Source: Nanobdellota archaeon (GTDB lineage: Archaea; Nanobdellota; Nanobdellia; SCGC-AAA011-G17; JACPIM01). From it: a stretch of 36,491 nt of DNA. The notes below the pieces were generated by a model. The model was not told where the DNA came from. It was given only the letters and a program-made list of their open reading frames with translations, and did not search any database. Positions 2,233 through 19,959 of this stretch are shown here, in pieces (the first letter of the stretch is position 1; each line of letters opens with the position of its first letter). The DNA is taken from positions 1 to 36,491 of the forward strand of contig JBBSWZ010000075.1 of assembly GCA_038046025.1 (NCBI GenBank). The letters are read 5' to 3'. The position numbers were made by a program, and so were the translations under genes.

Positions 2233-2915
2233 TTTTTCCAAAATAATTCTTTGTTTATGAACGCTTTAACTAATTTTTCATCTAATTCTTTGTCTGAGTT
2301 ATCTCTTTCTGGATGCCATAATATTCCTGCTATTGGATAATCTGGATGGTAAATTCCTTCAATAATTTTATCATCTGAGATTGCAAAATGTTTTAGTTTT
2401 GATGATAATTCTTTTTCTGTAAAACCTTGACTATGAAATGAATTTACAGTTGTTTTATTTTTTCCTAAGAATTTTGAAGATTCTTTATCTGTTATTTTAA
2501 TTTTATGTGTTACTGCAATATGATTAGTATTTAATTCTTCCTTTAAATTTTGGATTAAACTTCCCCTAAAGTAAACATTTAGAAATTGAGTTCCTCTACA
2601 TTCTGTAAAGACTGGTAATTTTTTTTGGATTGCTAAATCTAGTAATTTTTTTTCTGTATTATCTCTATTATCTGAATGATCTGATTTATATTTTGGTTCT
2701 TGATTGTATAATTTTGGATTTACGTTATTTCCTCCTGATAATATTATTCCGTGAATTGGTAATTCGAAGTATTTTTCAAAGTTTTTTGTGTTGTTAGAAA
2801 CTGGGATTAGCTTAATTCCATATTTTTCATAGTATCCAACATAATCCTGCTCTAGAGCATCTCTATTTGCTCCTTTTTCTGCAGGTACATCTCTTTGTGA
2901 AATTAGGACGAACAT
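2229..2915 (-). CDS. Class I glutamine amidotransferase-like / peptidase C26 gamma-glutamyl amidohydrolase
   Basis: 228 aa. GIILSGGNNVNP. Nucleophile elbow FTECRGTQFLNV (C-R-G-x-Q, as in PuuD-type C26 enzymes). HSQG... then ILWHPE supplying the His-(Pro)-Glu pair. One nt separates its ATG from the upstream stop. Confidence 0.75.
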   Translation of the reverse strand: MFVLISQRDVPAEKGANRDALEQDYVGYYEKYGIKLIPVSNNTKNFEKYFELPIHGIILSGGNNVNPKLYNQEPKYKSDHSDNRDNTEKKLLDLAIQKKLPVFTECRGTQFLNVYFRGSLIQNLKEELNTNHIAVTHKIKITDKESSKFLGKNKTTVNSFHSQGFTEKELSSKLKHFAISDDKIIEGIYHPDYPIAGILWHPERDNSDKELDEKLVKAFINKELFWKK

Positions 2916-2916
2916 G

Positions 2917-5775
2917 TTATACTCCTTTAAGATTAGTTATCTTATTCCCTTCACAATCTAACACTATGGATGATGAATTTTTAATATTATCGTATAAATT
3001 GCCACATCCAATTGCTGCTGGCAATCCAAATTCAGCACATCTTATAGACATATGTGAAGCTACTCCTCCATATTTAGTTATTAAACCAGCGGGATTTTTT
3101 GTGAATATCCAATCATATCCTGGGTCTCCATTCTCTAATAAAACAATCTTTCCCTTTAGGTCTGGTATTTCTTCTTTTTTTATTTTATTTAGATCAACTA
3201 GATCAGCGTAAATTTTTTTATTGGTTATAAAATTGGGCTTTGCTGTGAATTCAGATACTACATCAATATCTTTTTCTGAAAGTATTACTGGTGGTAAGAT
3301 TAGTTTTCTATTTATTTCCCTTTCTTTTTTTCTAGTTTCAATTAATTTTAAAAAAGACTTTTGTATTTCTTCTAAATTTTCTACATCTATTAGTCTAAAT
3401 AGATTTTCCAAAGCTAAAAAAGCCAAATCCTTTCTGGATAAGCTAATTTTTTCCCCCGCCTTTGCTATTAATTCTAAGGCTTCACTTAAATTCCTAGAAA
3501 ATTCAAATTTAGATAGCTCTCTTGCTTCTAAAGATTTTTTTATAAATTCGAATAATAATTCTGAGTTAATATTTAAGTTGTGTGAATTTAATTCTGATGA
3601 AATTTTATTGTGTATCTCTTGTGGTATTTTGAATGATGGTTCTTTATATTGTGATGATTTAAGATTAGAAAATAGGCTTGGATTAGAATCATATCTTAAG
3701 TTTGTGATATCATAAGTTCCTGGTCTTAGATGTCCATAGTTTTTTAAGAATTTTTCTTTTGTTAATTTTTTTTGTGTTAGTTTGTGAAAATCCTTAGTTA
3801 GCTGTTTTGCAATTGTATTTATAGAGTTTAAGAAAGAGTCATAAAATTGTTGATCTATCAAATTCCTATTTAATAGACTTTTTAATATTATTTTGCTTAT
3901 AAAAGCTAATCTGGCTATTCTAGAAAAGTGCAATGTTCCTTCCTTACAGCTTTCAAGAAGCCTTTTAGCTTGCTGTATTAGTTCTTGAGGAGTTAAATCT
4001 GATTTAAGCTCTATCTCTTTTACTTGTTCTCTTACAGATCTCATAGATTTTATCGAAGATAGATCTTTTTCTATTAAATCTTTATTTAGAAGGTTATTAG
4101 TTAATTTAATTAGTTCTTCTCTTAGTTCTTTTATTTCATTATAACTAAAATGGTTTTTTAGTTCTTTTATTCTTTCATCGAAAGTCAGATCATAACATGT
4201 ATAAAGAATATCAAATTCTACTTTGTCCTGTAATTCTGGATTGTTTTTTAATTTTTTTAAGTAGAAATTTACTAGTTTTTCTGATAGCGAATCTGATAGC
4301 GAATCTGGAATGAATGAATTAAAGTCATTTCTAACATTAATATATGGTTTGTTTCCAAATAGAACAAGAAGTTTGGCTGGTGAAACTTTTCTGTAGCCCT
4401 GATATGATCTTGCTTCATGCCATATCGAATCTGTAATTATAAATGAATATAAAGAATAGGCTAAGTGATTTGGGCTGTCTCCTATAATTTCAGCTGGATT
4501 CCAGTCTGGCATATCTGCAAAATGATTTTCATAACCAAAAAGATGATCTGGTTTACTAGATAAAGTGTGGAAGTTTTGTTTTAATTGATCTATTTTGTTT
4601 TTTACTTCTTCATCTAAACGAATATCTTTTTCTAAATTTACTGTAACTGGTCTTACTTGGAATATGATTATTTCTTTATTATCATTAATTGCAAATTCTA
4701 TGTCCAGTGTTAAATCTGGTATTAGGGATTCAATTTCATTTACTGATGTGATTAATTTTTTGAATAATTCCGGAATATTTTTTGGATCAGCAAATTTAGA
4801 AATCTTAATTGTTTTGTTTTCTTGACCTTTTGTTACTGTATCTGTTGAAGTTGTTTTATTATCATAATTTATTACATAATAAGGAGCATTATTTTCTAAG
4901 GATCTTGTGAAAAGAACTCCACTCATAATAATGTTTTCTGTTTGTTTTTGAATTAATATTTGATCTTTTGAATTTCTTGATTTTTTATTTGAATATGATT
5001 CAATAACTTTTATTATTGCGTTTTCTATTTCTCTTTTATTTTCAGATGAGATGTTTAATTCAGAATGAAAATATCCGGCCATTGAAGATTTTGTTGTGTC
5101 CTCCGTAATTGCTGAACTTCTAACTACAACCTTAGATGGGTTAAATGTATTTTGTACATTTTCTAGGATTCTTCCTTTGTTATTTTTCCAATCTAAAACT
5201 GTAAATGAATAAATTTCTTCTATTTTTGAATTTTTTAGTAGAGGTTTAAGATTTTTTAGAGTTTCAGCTTTAGTTGAGATTATTGATTGTTTAATCTCTG
5301 ATTTTTTGAAGTTTCTTAGTTTGAAAAAATTTGTAAATTCACCTAAATTTTGGAACTTTCCTTTATATTTATCAAGTAGGGTTGTTATTAGGTTTAAATC
5401 TGAAAATTGGTCATAGTTAGGATGTTTTATTATTTTTCCATTGATTGAGTTTAAGTAATCTGATTCTGGGAAATAATTGTAGTCTTCACTCCTAACCAAG
5501 ATTATTTCTGAATTTGGAAACTCTTTGTGTATTTTTTTTAGATTTTCTGTAGAATCTCTGCTTTCTTGTAAAATAACTCTATCAACACATTTTAAATTTT
5601 CAATTACTGCTTTTCTTTCATCTGGAGTTATGATAGATTCATCTGTTAAAATGCTACAGACATGAAAATCGGCTTGATTTTGGGCAAATTTTAAAGCTCT
5701 TAAATGTCCAAAATGGAAAAAATCTGTAGCTATTGTAGAATATGCTATTTTCCTAATTTTACTAGCTTCTACCAT
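2917..5775 (-). CDS. Fusion protein: HxGH cytidylyltransferase-like domain + PPDK_N ATP-grasp + PEP-utilizer phosphohistidine (swivel) domain
   Basis: The N-terminus has ...TDFFHFGHLRALKFA...CSILTDE..., a TagD/CTP_transf_like HxGH motif. The middle has VVVRSSAITEDTTKSSMAGYF, a PPDK_N/PEP-synthase ATP-grasp signature. The C-terminus has LITKYGGVASHMSIRCAEFGLPAAIGCG, the GG-x-x-SH phosphohistidine mobile domain. The track start 5781 is TTG. The first ATG is at 5773-5775. Confidence 0.75.
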   Translation of the reverse strand: MVEASKIRKIAYSTIATDFFHFGHLRALKFAQNQADFHVCSILTDESIITPDERKAVIENLKCVDRVILQESRDSTENLKKIHKEFPNSEIILVRSEDYNYFPESDYLNSINGKIIKHPNYDQFSDLNLITTLLDKYKGKFQNLGEFTNFFKLRNFKKSEIKQSIISTKAETLKNLKPLLKNSKIEEIYSFTVLDWKNNKGRILENVQNTFNPSKVVVRSSAITEDTTKSSMAGYFHSELNISSENKREIENAIIKVIESYSNKKSRNSKDQILIQKQTENIIMSGVLFTRSLENNAPYYVINYDNKTTSTDTVTKGQENKTIKISKFADPKNIPELFKKLITSVNEIESLIPDLTLDIEFAINDNKEIIIFQVRPVTVNLEKDIRLDEEVKNKIDQLKQNFHTLSSKPDHLFGYENHFADMPDWNPAEIIGDSPNHLAYSLYSFIITDSIWHEARSYQGYRKVSPAKLLVLFGNKPYINVRNDFNSFIPDSLSDSLSEKLVNFYLKKLKNNPELQDKVEFDILYTCYDLTFDERIKELKNHFSYNEIKELREELIKLTNNLLNKDLIEKDLSSIKSMRSVREQVKEIELKSDLTPQELIQQAKRLLESCKEGTLHFSRIARLAFISKIILKSLLNRNLIDQQFYDSFLNSINTIAKQLTKDFHKLTQKKLTKEKFLKNYGHLRPGTYDITNLRYDSNPSLFSNLKSSQYKEPSFKIPQEIHNKISSELNSHNLNINSELLFEFIKKSLEARELSKFEFSRNLSEALELIAKAGEKISLSRKDLAFLALENLFRLIDVENLEEIQKSFLKLIETRKKEREINRKLILPPVILSEKDIDVVSEFTAKPNFITNKKIYADLVDLNKIKKEEIPDLKGKIVLLENGDPGYDWIFTKNPAGLITKYGGVASHMSIRCAEFGLPAAIGCGNLYDNIKNSSSIVLDCEGNKITNLKGV

Positions 5776-15330: not shown

Positions 15331-16149
15331 ATGGGTGTGGTTGAGAGTTTTATTGTTAAAATTGGAGATGAAAATATTAGTATTAAAGCTCCAAAATTAG
15401 AGTTGGATAGTAATATTAAGGAGCTTGGTGAATATTTGGGAGTTTCTTTTGATGTGTTGAAAAAGGAATTGGAAAAGAAATCTGAAAGATATGGTGGTTT
15501 TGGGAAATATGTTAAAGTTTCTGAGGAAGAATGGAATTCTAGAAAAATTAATCAGAATAAAGCTAAGGAAATAATGAAATTTTATTCTGAAACTGAAAAT
15601 TATATGCCTGAGTTAATGATTGTTTCTGCATCTGAGGATAAACAAAAATTGAGAAGATTTATTGCTGCTTATTGTAAAAAAGAGGGGGTTAAAAAAATTT
15701 TAGATTTTGGATGCGGTGTTGGAGATGATTGTATTATTGCTGCTTTAAATGGATTGAGTGCTGATGGTGTAGATATAGAAAGTAAGACTTTTGATTTTGC
15801 TAAGTGGAGATTTAATAAATATGGTGTTAATGTTAATACCTTTAATATTAATGAAGAGTTTTTTAATGAAAAATATGATGCTATAAACTGCATTGAGGTA
15901 TTACAGCATCTGCCTGACGTTGAGAAAACTTTAGAACAATTTTATGAAAATTTAAATGAAAATGGTTTGTTGTTTCTAGCTTTTAGGTTTAAAGGTAATT
16001 ATACATTAGCATTGAAAAAAAATGAAAAATATGAAAATAATTTTGATGGGGTCGTTAGGAAAAAAGGTTTTGAATTAATTGATAAGGTGCATATGTGGGG
16101 TCCTAAAGATAGTTCTGGTAAGTGGTTGTATGTTTTTAAGAAAAATTAA
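15331..16149 (+). CDS. Class I SAM-dependent methyltransferase
   Basis: 272 aa. Motif I is KILDFGCGVGDD. The post-I acidic residue is in ...GVDIE. Motif II is YDAINCIEVLQHL. Confidence 0.75.
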   Translation: MGVVESFIVKIGDENISIKAPKLELDSNIKELGEYLGVSFDVLKKELEKKSERYGGFGKYVKVSEEEWNSRKINQNKAKEIMKFYSETENYMPELMIVSASEDKQKLRRFIAAYCKKEGVKKILDFGCGVGDDCIIAALNGLSADGVDIESKTFDFAKWRFNKYGVNVNTFNINEEFFNEKYDAINCIEVLQHLPDVEKTLEQFYENLNENGLLFLAFRFKGNYTLALKKNEKYENNFDGVVRKKGFELIDKVHMWGPKDSSGKWLYVFKKN

Positions 16150-16154
16150 TTTAA

Positions 16155-17204
16155 ATGGAAAGAAAAATACAAATTGTTAATCATGGAACTAAAACAAAAG
16201 AAGATATTTCTGTTAAGAAAGTAGATACTAAAATATTTTATGATGAGGGATTAACAAAACAGTTTAAAGAATTTTCTAAAAGAAATAATGAAGTTAATTT
16301 TAATTGGTATAGTTCAGATCTTCCATTTTTTAAATCTCTTAAGGTAGTTAATGGAAAAGTAATATATGAAGTAGGATCAACTACTTCCATAGAAACATTA
16401 GGATTTCTATCTTTAATGAGAAATAGAAAAAATTCATTGGAAGTTTTAAAACAGGGGAAAGGATTTGAAAGGTTTAGGGATTTAATATTAAAAAATGGAG
16501 TTTTTTATTTGACTAAACTTTATTTTAGTATGGGTCAAATTATAATTGGGATTACTAAAGATGAAGAAATTATATTATTAAGGAGATCTAAACAATTGAG
16601 TGAGGGGCCAGGGAGATATAATGTTTTTGCTGGTTTTATCTCAAGTGTTAATGAACTTGATGGAAAGAAAGTTGATATTACTGATTTCTTTGGACAGGCA
16701 AAGGCAGAACTTCTAGAGGAAAGTGGATTAAGTTCTTCTGATTTTGATAATAAAAGACTTCAACTTAATGGTTTGGTCAGGGGTTTATACAATTCTTATT
16801 TGCCAGGATTAGCATGGTCTTATAAGTTTAATTTAACAAGTGATGAAATATTAGGATTGTTAAAGAGGGCTAATAAATTTGATAATGTTCATACAGAGCA
16901 TGATTCTGTTTTGTTTTTACCGATAGATAAGATTGGTTTATTGTTTAGTAAAAAAGGCTTTATTGATAGGAGAGGAGTAAAGTTTGATCCTGCGATAGCT
17001 GAAGATGATAATAGTAAGACTGGTATTGTAGATGATACTATTGGTGCTTTGCTTTCTTATTTGTTAAATAACAATTCTAAATATTTTGAGAAAATTAAAA
17101 GGATACTGAAGCAGAGAAATCTTGCCATTGAGGTAATTGATGTTACTAAGAGTAGTAAAAAGTTTTCTTTTAGAGAAGGGGCTCTGGTGCAACCCTCAAA
17201 ATAA
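16155..17204 (+). CDS. Hypothetical protein with a near-complete Nudix box; its 3' end is altered by the IS insertion
   Basis: 349 aa. GKKVDITDFFGQAKAELLEESGL compared with the Nudix consensus G-x5-E-x7-R-E-U-x-E-E-x-G-U matches G, E, U, E, E, G and U, with E->T and R->A. The last 7 codons (ALVQPSK*) are read from the IS left end. Confidence 0.45.
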   Translation: MERKIQIVNHGTKTKEDISVKKVDTKIFYDEGLTKQFKEFSKRNNEVNFNWYSSDLPFFKSLKVVNGKVIYEVGSTTSIETLGFLSLMRNRKNSLEVLKQGKGFERFRDLILKNGVFYLTKLYFSMGQIIIGITKDEEIILLRRSKQLSEGPGRYNVFAGFISSVNELDGKKVDITDFFGQAKAELLEESGLSSSDFDNKRLQLNGLVRGLYNSYLPGLAWSYKFNLTSDEILGLLKRANKFDNVHTEHDSVLFLPIDKIGLLFSKKGFIDRRGVKFDPAIAEDDNSKTGIVDDTIGALLSYLLNNNSKYFEKIKRILKQRNLAIEVIDVTKSSKKFSFREGALVQPSK

Positions 17205-18027
17205 GCAATAAATAATATTGCATTCTGTCAATATTATAAGTTATTAGTTTGCTTATTAACTCTACCTTCTGAGTTGCACAGCTTCTTGATCTAAGTACAG
17301 AACCATATTTCCTTTTAATCACAGAGAATATAGTCTCTACCTTACTTCTCTGATGATAGTCTTTCCCATATATCTTACTATTCCCTATATGTCCATAATA
17401 ATTAGTATGGCTTCTTACTGGAATAATCGGCATAGCCTTTAATTTCCTAATCACAAAACCTCTATTCTTACGACTATCATATCCTTTATCAGCTATAACT
17501 TGTTTAAAATTTAGATCTCTTACTAGATTTATGAAATCAAGAGTATCATTCCTAACCTTCTTCCTTATTTTGTATCTCATAATAAGCTGTTTTTCAAGAT
17601 CAGCTGATATACTTAATTTCATGAATTGCTTTGTTTTCTGCTTATCGGAGCTATTTCTTAGAGTTTTATAATAATAACTTTTACTTTCTAACTCAAATCC
17701 TGTTGCATCTATTCCAACAGTAACTGCTTGTCTAATACCAAGCAGTTTATGTATTTGTTTCCTAGTCTTATTAACAAATCTAACAATAGTACTATGAGAA
17801 GGTACTCTTGTTAGTCCTAGATGCATTCTCATGTCAGAACTAGCTCTTAGTATAGAAGCTATTCCTCTTGTAGTTGTCTTAAACTTCTGCATTAAGACAT
17901 ATATTGCAAACTTCTGATAGTTGCAATATATCTTGTTAGAATACTTACTAAAGTACCTGGGTAGTGATTTAGCAAGATCAAGTGCATCATCTATAAACTT
18001 TAAATAATCTGAATACTCCTTATTCAT
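17170..18027 (-). CDS. DDE transposase (IS5/IS4 family, DDE_Tnp_1-like)
   Basis: 285 aa. GIDATGFE (first D), ADKGYDSRKNR (second D) and RSKVETIFSVIKRKYG (the E region typical of the IS5 family). A GAGGTG SD lies 7 nt upstream of the ATG at 18025-18027. The ORF reads through the left IR, and its stop lies 10 nt outside it. Confidence 0.8.
   Translation of the reverse strand: MNKEYSDYLKFIDDALDLAKSLPRYFSKYSNKIYCNYQKFAIYVLMQKFKTTTRGIASILRASSDMRMHLGLTRVPSHSTIVRFVNKTRKQIHKLLGIRQAVTVGIDATGFELESKSYYYKTLRNSSDKQKTKQFMKLSISADLEKQLIMRYKIRKKVRNDTLDFINLVRDLNFKQVIADKGYDSRKNRGFVIRKLKAMPIIPVRSHTNYYGHIGNSKIYGKDYHQRSKVETIFSVIKRKYGSVLRSRSCATQKVELISKLITYNIDRMQYYLLLILRVAPEPLL
17172..17179. repeat. Left copy of the 8-bp target-site duplication (AGAGAAGG)
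   Basis: An identical octamer occurs at 18105-18112. Each copy lies one base outside the terminal inverted repeat. Confidence 0.55.
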
Positions 18028-18104
18028 TGAGGTCCACCTCTTTGTCCTTTTATAAGGAGGCCTAGGACCTCATTCTTTTAAAATTATAGGAATGCACCAG
18101 AGCA
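17180..18104 (-). mobile_element. Intact ~925-bp insertion sequence (IS5/IS4-type DDE transposase, one ORF)
   Basis: Terminal inverted repeats are GCTCTGGTGCAACCCT (17181-17196) and the reverse complement of 18088-18103 (GCTCTGGTGCATTCCT). That is 14 of 16 identical, with the first 11 perfect. Flanked by the 8-bp direct repeat AGAGAAGG. A single transposase ORF fills the element. Confidence 0.7.
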
Positions 18105-18112
18105 AGAGAAGG
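18105..18112. repeat. Right copy of the 8-bp target-site duplication (AGAGAAGG)
   Basis: Identical to 17172-17179. Confidence 0.55.
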
Positions 18113-18148
18113 AAACGTTTAAAAAGATTGAGAATTGGGGGACGTGTT

Positions 18149-18826
18149 ATGTCAAATATAAAAGCGGTTATCTTTGATATTGGAAAAGTACTAGCTGATT
18201 TTGATATGGATAGGGCTTGGACCGCCTTTGCTAAATTTACTGAGATTCCTGCTTCTGAAATGGAAGGTATAGTTTACGAAACCTCTGATAAAGAGGTACT
18301 AAAATATGGTACTTCTAAAAAGGATGATATTGTTAAAAGATATAATACTTGTAATGTTGATGATGCTAGGTTTCGTGAATGGATGCGAGAAAGATTACAA
18401 TTAAGAAATATAACTGATGAAGAATTTGATCAGGCTTGGGGTGATATTTTTACCACAAATGGCCCTGTTTGTGGTTTGGTAAAAAAATTATCTAATAATG
18501 GATATACACTTGTAGCTTTAAGTGATACGAATCCTATACAGATGAGATATATAATGCAAACTATTCCAGATACGATGAGATTATTTAATGGAAGAGTTCT
18601 TACCTCCTTTGATATAGGAGTTATGAAGCCTGATGAGAGAACTTACAATGAAGCTGTTAAGACAGCTGGAGTTCAAAGCGGAGAATGGGTATATGTTGAT
18701 GATAGAAAAAAATATGTTAGTCCTGTAAGTAAATTAGGTGGACATGGAATATGGTATGATTGGGATAACCCTAGAAGAGATGAGATATTATTAAAAGATT
18801 TAAAAGATTTAGGAGTGAGATTTTAA
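18149..18826 (+). CDS. HAD-IA hydrolase, YihX-like (sugar-1-phosphate phosphatase type)
   Basis: Motif I AVIFDIGKVL (D-x-G variant, as in E. coli YihX IFDLGNVI). Motif II LVALSDTN. Motif III KPDERTY. Motif IV VYVDDR. The overall layout parallels YihX. The track start 18092 lies inside the IS inverted repeat. ATG 18149 is preceded by GGGGG (18137-18141). Confidence 0.7.
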   Translation: MSNIKAVIFDIGKVLADFDMDRAWTAFAKFTEIPASEMEGIVYETSDKEVLKYGTSKKDDIVKRYNTCNVDDARFREWMRERLQLRNITDEEFDQAWGDIFTTNGPVCGLVKKLSNNGYTLVALSDTNPIQMRYIMQTIPDTMRLFNGRVLTSFDIGVMKPDERTYNEAVKTAGVQSGEWVYVDDRKKYVSPVSKLGGHGIWYDWDNPRRDEILLKDLKDLGVRF

Positions 18827-19885
18827 ATGGCTGATGAAACTGTTTTGGAAATATGGAGCAGAAAAAGAACTTGGTTATTAAATGGAGGTGGTAACTATCC
18901 ACAACTAAGAGGAGAGGTTTCTTTGGGGGGTTTAAAAAAGAAATTAGATGCCAATATAGTATTGCCTAGGAATGAAAGGATTGCTTGTTTAGAAACCCTA
19001 AGAATTGATGAAGAACAAGCAGATCCTGGTAAGACTAGTGAGTGGGAAGCTATGTATAGTATGGGTCTTAGAGAGGCACTTTTTTCATGGCATTTAGGAC
19101 TTAACAAGGCTAGAAATAAAGCTAATGCTATTATTGATGATATGTTTCCTAGTAGACATGTATTAGGTTTGAATTCTGGTATCTTGCCACTTGGTATAAT
19201 GGGGATTACCTTGACAAGAGACGGAGGTAATTTTTTACTTGGTGTTAGAGATCCTAATGCTACTGCAACTGTTGGTAATTATTGTTTAGTTCCTGCTGGT
19301 TTTTTTGGTTTTAGAAAACCTGGCGCTGACGACAAAAAAGTAGTTTCAAATACATTTTACCGAGAATTTTTTGAAGAAGTTCTGTATGGACCTGATTTTT
19401 TTGATCTTAATCCTGCTGAAGCACTTCAAAGCTATATTGATCCGTTGGTGAGATCCTATAGTCAAGGACAAATTAGTCTTCCGCATATTGTTGGATTAAC
19501 CTATGAGGATAGAAACAATAGAGGGTTTGGAGTTCCAATTACATTCAAAACTTCATTTACTGCTAAAGGACTGAATGAATATCTTAAAGCAAAAAATCCT
19601 GATGTAGAACATATAGGATACGAACTTAGAGAATTTTCGCCTGAATCTATTGAGCATCTTGTAAGAAGCCGTGGAAGAGGAGTGGAGATACATACACTTG
19701 GTGCTTTACTTTGTGCTGGAGAAAATGAATTTGAAAATGGTGAGGAATGGTATCAAAAAATGGTGACTAAGGTAGTGCCGCAACATTATGGAAAAGTGAT
19801 GACTTTACCTGAAACAACTTTTGATGAGACTAGAGATGTGGTGGAATTAATCAAAGGAACAATGCCACGAAGATATCCAAGCTAG
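18827..19885 (+). CDS. Hypothetical protein, divergent paralog of 16155..17204, with a degenerate Nudix box
   Basis: 352 aa. GNYCLVPAGFFG...DDKKVVSNTFYREFFEEV aligns with GRYNVFAGFIS...DGKKVDITDFFGQAKAELLEES of the upstream protein. R-E-F-x-E-E is retained, but the following G-U and the upstream E are lost. Its ATG directly abuts the HAD stop (TAAATG), and an AGGAGTG SD lies upstream. Confidence 0.45.
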   Translation: MADETVLEIWSRKRTWLLNGGGNYPQLRGEVSLGGLKKKLDANIVLPRNERIACLETLRIDEEQADPGKTSEWEAMYSMGLREALFSWHLGLNKARNKANAIIDDMFPSRHVLGLNSGILPLGIMGITLTRDGGNFLLGVRDPNATATVGNYCLVPAGFFGFRKPGADDKKVVSNTFYREFFEEVLYGPDFFDLNPAEALQSYIDPLVRSYSQGQISLPHIVGLTYEDRNNRGFGVPITFKTSFTAKGLNEYLKAKNPDVEHIGYELREFSPESIEHLVRSRGRGVEIHTLGALLCAGENEFENGEEWYQKMVTKVVPQHYGKVMTLPETTFDETRDVVELIKGTMPRRYPS

Positions 19886-19959
19886 TCTAAATCAAGAATT
19901 GGTTTGTGATGCAAGGTTACCCAAAAGAATAGAGTATAACATTATTGATTTATACTTTT

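Follow-up and report, generated by a model that had tools for sequence, protein, structure and literature searches.

We have analyzed a 36,491-nt stretch of DNA (hereafter the window; positions 1 to 36,491 of contig JBBSWZ010000075.1, assembly GCA_038046025.1) from a Nanobdellota archaeon, in which two proteins of ~350 amino acids (aa), P1 and P2, are encoded on either side of a phosphatase gene, HAD, and downstream of a methyltransferase gene, MT. All four open reading frames (ORFs) had been described in an earlier note on this DNA, and all four are present (Table 1). Genes of the P1/P2 type are annotated as "hypothetical" and receive no family from Pfam or NCBIfam models; profile comparisons identify their products as very divergent relatives of the human hydrolase NUDT22. 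The source is a low-GC (~29%) DPANN archaeon, represented by a 759-kb assembly that is 82% complete, and close homologs carry the names Woesearchaeota or Nanoarchaeota. The window is a surface-glycan island that includes genes for a flippase, two DegT aminotransferases, a hexapeptide acetyltransferase, NagB and an acetyl-CoA synthetase, together with GFO/IDH, GT2, two GT4, CE4 deacetylase and radical S-adenosylmethionine (SAM) enzyme genes. Within it, MT ends 5 nt before P1, and the start codon of P2 directly abuts the stop codon of HAD.

Table 1. Features of the module in the window, and gene orders at corresponding loci. L001, L003, L004, L005, L008, L049 and L052 are relatives' contigs, G317 is a genome of the same genus and G000 is the archaeon's own assembly.
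Feature or locus	Position	Strand	Description
MT	15331-16149	+	272 aa, class I SAM-dependent methyltransferase with ~100-aa N-terminal extension
P1	16155-17204	+	349 aa, predicted NUDT22-like two-domain Nudix hydrolase
Transposase ORF	17170-18027	-	285 aa; Pfam DDE_Tnp_1, E = 5e-15, 56.2 bits (cut-off 23)
Target-site duplication, left copy	17172-17179		AGAGAAGG, 8 bp, read from the sequence
IS5-family insertion sequence	17180-18104	-	925 bp, between P1 and HAD
Target-site duplication, right copy	18105-18112		AGAGAAGG, 8 bp, read from the sequence
HAD	18092-18826 (longest ORF); likely 18149-18826	+	YihX-like HAD-IA phosphatase, 225 aa from the likely start MSNIKAVIFDIGKV
P2	18827-19885	+	352 aa, highly divergent NUDT22-like Nudix protein
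L001			P1-HAD-[319-aa protein]-HAD2-small Nudix
L005			P1-[319-aa protein]-HAD-HAD-small Nudix
L003, L004			HAD-P2
L049			HAD-P2-HAD2-small Nudix
L052			P2-HAD

The earlier note took P1 and P2 for divergent paralogs, a relationship that direct comparison does not reveal. Pairwise BLASTP found no similarity between them (best E = 1.9), hhalign of the shallow P1 and P2 family alignments (A1 and A2) returned a probability of 0.2%, and neither family profile retrieved the other gene in the archaeon's own genome at E ≤ 10. Because these pairwise and shallow comparisons gave no signal, the P1 family was deepened through profile searches of 1.8 billion representative proteins, where relatives of ~300 aa were found at E = 3e-23 to 3e-4, and then of 400 DPANN genomes. 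The enlarged profile had matches in 36 of the 400 genomes at E ≤ 1e-5, including 23 ORFs of at least 240 aa at E ≤ 1e-8. Two of the resulting alignments are referred to below, namely A3, the P1 family with 14 members, and A7, which holds 36 NUDT22-like sequences including P1.

When the P2 family (7 sequences) was compared with the 36-sequence alignment, hhalign gave a probability of 97.0% (E = 9e-11) over 272 columns, in an alignment that spans residues 1-325 of P2 against residues 1-325 of P1. In an hmmsearch, the 36-sequence profile scored 23.6 bits on P2 of the window, with a maximum of 37 bits among the relatives of P2. As hhalign controls, a reversed template scored 13.7 and an unrelated HAD alignment 14.6, and column-permuted templates stayed at or below 18.7 in 78 of 80 cases. 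The other two permutations reached ~130 from alignments of 3-6 columns at the template end and were treated as an end-of-profile artefact of the program. Such end alignments, with scores of ~130 and a probability of 99%, arise occasionally when hhalign is run with -loc -norealign on permuted templates, and a filter is needed for this use. On the strength of the deep-profile match and its controls, P1 and P2 are true but very old homologs; the negative BLASTP and shallow hhalign results, taken alone, would have led to homology being wrongly refuted. As for the motif pairs from which paralogy had been proposed, IIGITKDEEIILLRR / IMGITLTRDGGNFLLGVR and GRYNVFAGF / GNYCLVPAGF are indeed aligned by hhalign, whereas DGKKV and DDKKV fall ~4 columns out of register and their likeness is probably coincidental. 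The P2 family is rare: attempts to deepen it by word-indexed search and in genome and metagenome contigs returned only close relatives.

As single sequences, P1 and P2 retrieved nothing useful from Pfam, NCBIfam or the PDB, and their matches to MspA, GPR55 and GnsA were discarded as noise (E > 0.01). The canonical Nudix model PF00293 (gathering threshold 21.1 bits) matched neither protein at E ≤ 1, and it reached that value in two of the 14 A3 members, with a best E of 0.0015. The family profiles were more informative. Human NUDT22 in the PDB was matched by the A3 profile at E = 2.6e-13 and by the A7 profile at E = 1.3e-29 (106.6 bits), with positions 27-276 of 303 in the profile aligned to residues 39-285 of 304 in NUDT22. 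Canonical Nudix structures (NUDT17, MutT and others) matched A7 over the core only and at E ≥ 7e-5. Against an alignment of 33 DPANN Nudix sequences, hhalign probabilities were 91% for A1, 97% for A3, 98% for the 36-sequence set and 63-67% for P2, and in the P1 and P2 families alike these matches cover the strand-loop-helix of the Nudix box. A relation of both proteins to the Nudix superfamily, as the earlier note had suspected, is thus supported by these profile comparisons, and the ~350-aa family to which it could put no name is, by sequence profile, the NUDT22-like family.

Human NUDT22 (PDB 5lf9, 5lor and 5lou) is a UDP-glucose/UDP-galactose pyrophosphatase that has been described as an outlier of the human Nudix family without a conventional Nudix box (PMC5688067). 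The archaeal proteins share its outlier position relative to canonical Nudix proteins, and homology to it is near full-length and extends to the part that precedes the Nudix domain. NUDT22 and P1/P2 also have in common a size of ~300-350 aa, a non-conventional box and a long insertion before the ExxEE helix. In contrast to the animal enzyme, with which they share only ~15-20% identity, the archaeal proteins have a predicted activity and occur as tandem divergent copies, linked to HAD phosphatases, within a glycan island.

Both proteins retain remnants of a Nudix box, and the residues concerned are invariant within each family. The box of P1 is non-canonical (...AGFISSVNELDGKKVDITDFFGQAKAELLEESGL, residues ~159-192), and E185, E188, E189, G191 and L192 in its AELLEESGL segment do not vary in the P1 family. 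The counterpart in P2 is REFFEEVLY, with R179, E180, E183 and E184 invariant in the P2 family. P1 is without the Arg of the Nudix box, and P2 is without its terminal Gly-hydrophobic pair. Across the 36 sequences, R144 never varies, and conservation is 90% or higher at G160 and E189. When aligned with NUDT22, AELLEE of P1 falls on QEICDE, preceded by an insertion in both proteins, and REFFEE of P2 occupies the same columns; over the longer segment, A-E-L-L-E-E-S-G-L of P1 corresponds to Q-E-I-C-D-E-V-N-L of NUDT22. Since the acidic ExxEE residues are retained, we argue that both P1 and P2 are probably catalytic. The degeneracy of both boxes could instead point to a non-catalytic binding or regulatory subunit, for one paralog or both, as the earlier note had allowed, or to a decapping enzyme for NDP-sugar-capped RNA, a role that has been suggested for NUDT22 without test (PMC11253889). 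We consider this highly improbable: the metal-binding residues of ExxEE are invariant within each family, NUDT22 is active despite its non-conventional box, and neither the glycan-island context nor linkage to a sugar-phosphate phosphatase suggests RNA as a substrate.

The product of HAD belongs by sequence profile to subfamily IA of the HAD superfamily, with scores of 37.3 bits for Pfam Hydrolase PF00702 (cut-off 26.4) and 33.7 bits for TIGR01509 HAD-SF-IA-v3 (cut-off 29.4). The ATG at 18149 is its most likely true start, because orthologs begin with MIK(A/T)VIFD. The best relatives in the PDB are structures of E. coli YihX (2b0c, 8pno and 8pne; E = 1.8e-13, residues 7-198 against 3-179), an alpha-D-glucose-1-phosphate phosphatase of type HAD-IA, which bears out the parallel drawn in the earlier note. 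The best NCBIfam model is PRK09456 glucose-1-phosphatase, at 68.4 bits against a cut-off of 295, and for this reason the protein is regarded as YihX-like and not as a YihX ortholog. HAD and YihX are of the same length class, have the same C1-cap layout and share an unusual motif I, F-D-x-G-x-V, with Gly at Asp+2; an extra cap insertion of ~15 residues distinguishes HAD. The motifs are FDIGKV (I, with the nucleophile Asp kept and Gly at Asp+2), LSDTNP (II), MKP (III) and DD (IV), and D10, G12, S125, T127, K160, D184 and D185 are invariant in nine family members (A5).

Linkage of HAD to P1 or P2 was found in every same-genus locus examined (the six loci in Table 1 all come from close relatives of the genus of the window), and the HAD-P2 pair is kept in L003, L004, L049 and G317. 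The slot of P2 is held in L001 (11789-12748) and L005 (5972-6931) by a 319-aa protein for which BLAST shows no similarity to either P1 or P2. With hhalign, this protein scored 76% over 222 columns of the 36-sequence profile, from only two sequences, and it is a probable remote member of the NUDT22-like family. The locus thus seems to exchange divergent NUDT22-like subtypes. Two more genes follow the P2-slot gene in relatives, one for a second HAD of the YihX-like kind and one for a small canonical Nudix protein (PF00293, ~200 aa; L001:12805-14089 and L049:1319-2564), neither of which is found after P2 in the window.

The association extends beyond the genus. A survey of Nudix-like/HAD co-occurrence showed that the pairing recurs elsewhere among DPANN archaea. 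Of the 23 distant NUDT22-like genes, 6 have a YihX-like HAD no more than 1.5 kb away, and these come from at least four other families. The genomes concerned contain only 1-4 YihX-like HADs per 1.3-1.6 Mb, and chance adjacency is estimated at less than about 1% per gene when related genomes are treated as independent; since they were so treated, the true significance of the linkage is lower than this estimate suggests. Three of five extended HAD-linked pairs adjoin epimerase/dehydratase, DUF354 or epimerase-GFO/IDH genes. The DUF354 proteins, which have weak similarity to UDP-GlcNAc 2-epimerase, adjoin HAD/NUDT22-like pairs in DPANN family f28 (L107:2753-3784 and L108:4151-5191), and the L107 pair also adjoins a fused epimerase-GFO/IDH gene of 646 aa. 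Contexts of the distant relatives P0019 and P0021-P0026 were mostly uninformative.

Taken with their families and neighbors, P1 and P2 are predicted to be anciently diverged NUDT22-like Nudix proteins, each with an N-terminal and a Nudix domain, that act jointly with the YihX-type HAD to dismantle nucleotide-sugars, a reading that we hold with slightly better than even confidence. In the first predicted step, the ExxEE metal-binding helix of P1 or P2 would hydrolyze the pyrophosphate bond of a nucleotide-sugar to give a nucleoside monophosphate (NMP) and a sugar-1-phosphate, with human NUDT22 acting on UDP-glucose and UDP-galactose as the model. HAD would then remove the phosphate from the anomeric carbon, the reaction that YihX carries out on glucose-1-phosphate, so that the net reaction of the coupled steps would be conversion of a nucleoside diphosphate (NDP)-sugar to NMP, inorganic phosphate and free sugar. 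P1 and P2 would cover different substrates. Since the genes lie in a surface-glycan island, the module may serve to trim, proofread or recycle particular, probably modified, nucleotide-sugar pools. The two-step logic of a Nudix enzyme followed by a phosphatase had been put forward in the earlier note, and it now has a precedent in a characterized family member, since NUDT22 hydrolyzes UDP-glucose to UMP and glucose-1-phosphate (PMC10101856), the very products proposed; for the archaeal proteins the activity is a prediction.

Several observations weigh against this reading. The membership of P2 in the family depends on profile-profile comparison alone, and a P2-family profile searched with HMMER had no match in Pfam and retrieved no Nudix protein from the PDB, NUDT22 included. 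Structure predictions were of low confidence (AlphaFold2 mean predicted local distance difference test scores of 45.2 for P1 and 33.3 for P2, from alignments of only 7 and 6 sequences, respectively; Foldseek with the P1 model returned noise), and for this reason the fold rests on sequence profiles only. HAD scores far under the equivalog cut-off of its best NCBIfam model, so its substrate may differ from that of YihX. An adjacent HAD is missing from 17 of the 23 distant NUDT22-like genes, several of which lie in non-glycan contexts. Finally, it would need explaining why an island devoted to biosynthesis should harbor a futile cycle of hydrolysis.

A partial parallel for such hydrolysis exists in the colanic-acid cluster of E. 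coli. Gmm/WcaH (NudD), a GDP-mannose mannosyl hydrolase, is likewise a Nudix-superfamily protein with an altered box that is encoded in a surface-polysaccharide cluster, and it probably serves to adjust the pool of a nucleotide-sugar. Unlike P1 and P2, it is a small single-domain protein of ~160 aa from outside the NUDT22 type. Its cleavage at C1 of the sugar yields GDP and mannose instead of the NMP and sugar-1-phosphate predicted here, and it is not known to have a partner phosphatase.

The sugar-1-phosphates released by P1 and P2 might have a different main fate, in which a nucleotidyltransferase re-activates them onto a different nucleotide, or the NMP is salvaged, and HAD is only an overflow valve. 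This version is suggested by a distant relative, P0020, which lies in a co-oriented operon without a HAD on a marine metagenome contig (L054:3971-9507). The gene order there is a 4,6-dehydratase-type epimerase, the NUDT22-like P0020, a DegT aminotransferase, an NTP_transferase, an epimerase and a Methyltransf_23 gene, so that in this NDP-sugar operon a single gene lies between P0020 and the NTP_transferase. (The methyltransferase near P0020 was considered as a counterpart of MT and set aside, as the two share only generic class I similarity.) The archaeon's own genome encodes at least five genes of the NTP_transferase family, but the translationally abutting partner in the window is a phosphatase, and the nearest nucleotidyltransferase lies ~14 kb from the module. 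With respect to salvage, NUDT22 has been tied to pyrimidine salvage in human cells (PMC10101856). PyrB (OTCace_N) was searched for and not found in the 82%-complete genome, yet PyrD-family (DHO_dh) and OMP-decarboxylase (PyrF)-family genes are present, side by side on contig C33 of G000 (2813-4472); given these genes and the incompleteness of the assembly, dependence on salvage is not established. Carrier exchange or salvage as the main role therefore appears unlikely, if not negligibly so.

Nudix enzymes have a broad substrate range that is hard to predict, and P1 and P2 could also act on other NDP-linked compounds, such as CDP-alcohols, intermediates of a CDP-phosphoramidate pathway or ADP-ribose, in which case the phospho-compound or nucleotide so produced would be the substrate of HAD. 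The island does contain a CDP-alcohol phosphatidyltransferase gene and a cytidylyltransferase/PEP-utilising fusion, and the non-glycan neighborhoods of several distant family members would fit such substrates. Nevertheless, the only characterized NUDT22-family member acts on UDP-hexoses, the best-characterized relative of HAD acts on a hexose-1-phosphate and the recurrent neighbors are NDP-sugar-modifying enzymes, which together leave us with considerable doubt about this possibility.

The earlier note had compared the module to the hydrolase step of nonulosonic-acid pathways, in which the net outcome of PseG, NeuC and LegG is likewise a free sugar split from an NDP-sugar, again as part of a glycan pathway. 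These enzymes have unrelated GT-B or epimerase folds, work in a single hydrolytic step and, to our knowledge, are always accompanied by a NeuB-type synthase. A free sugar released for downstream condensation would be identical in net chemistry, and dehydratase and aminotransferase genes do lie beside P0020. A search of the 82%-complete genome for the NeuB-family synthase (PF03102), however, found none, which leaves the analogy unsupported, and the window has no aldolase or synthase; release of a sugar for condensation is thus very unlikely here.

In the window the four genes no longer form one transcription unit, owing to the insertion between P1 and HAD of an IS5-family element, which the earlier note did not mention. 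The element carries a transposase gene, its terminal inverted repeats (GGCTCTGGTGCA and TGCACCAGAGCA) match at 11 of 12 positions, it is flanked by a target-site duplication and an empty site is found in a relative: G317 has contiguous P1-HAD-P2 with a 38-nt spacer between P1 and HAD and no insertion sequence. Against the NCBIfam model transpos_IS5_2, the transposase scored 128.6 bits, just below the cut-off of 140. The last seven residues of P1 (ALVQPSK) come from the end of the element. When the element and one copy of the repeat were removed in silico, P1 ended in ...KFSFREGNV*, and orthologs end in ...KFTFR(Q); we infer that ...KFSFREGNV is the native C-terminus. The restored end is followed by a short spacer and then by the HAD start, MSNIKAVIFD, at 18149. 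Insertion hit the last codons of P1, and the element now stands between HAD-P2 and the upstream promoter. A partial second copy of the end of the element is located on another contig of the same assembly (G000 contig C54, 14475-14584; 89% identity over 110 nt).

The single four-gene operon of the earlier note also fails at its upstream end, where the juxtaposition of MT and P1 is not conserved in relatives. MT is a match to Pfam Methyltransf_23 (E = 1.2e-17, 64.6 bits, cut-off 27), its orthologs in relatives adjoin an acetyl-CoA synthetase gene, and in each of the three relatives that were examined (L001, L005 and G317) genes of opposite orientation come between it and P1. We rejected MT as a member of the module, as its adjacency to P1 is unique to this genome. 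Between MT and P1, relatives have an opposite-strand gene of 297-305 aa with no known function (L001:6894-9923, L005:3233-4870 and L008:548-1441), and the interval in L001 also holds a 177-aa gene and a MutS_V-domain gene; none of these occurs in the window. On the other side of the module, only 74 nt (19886-19959) separate P2 from a convergent PIN (VapC) gene.

A literature search found no paper on prokaryotic (archaeal) relatives of NUDT22, and the biological role of NUDT22 itself has been described only recently (PMC10101856). The NUDT22-like family is present in roughly 6-9% of sampled DPANN genomes. What we describe is a modestly new arrangement of known enzyme types, an incremental extension and no new kind of system, through which two orphan proteins gain a concrete and testable candidate function. 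It also suggests that the glycan metabolism of minimal archaea includes a deliberate breakdown of nucleotide-sugars by hydrolysis. More speculatively, and with little confidence, DPANN archaea may keep arrays of fast-diversifying NUDT22-like paralogs, of at least three types (P1, P2 and the 319-aa protein) that swap at one locus, each beside its own YihX-like phosphatase, as a substrate-specific "nucleotide-sugar disassembly line". If true, such a line would serve either for the proofreading of uncommon glycan precursors or for the recovery of NMP and sugars from nucleotide-sugars that are scavenged from the host. Glycan metabolism would then have a catabolic or editing layer of its own, for which no organism offers a described precedent, and an archaeal origin would be indicated for the eukaryotic outlier NUDT22.

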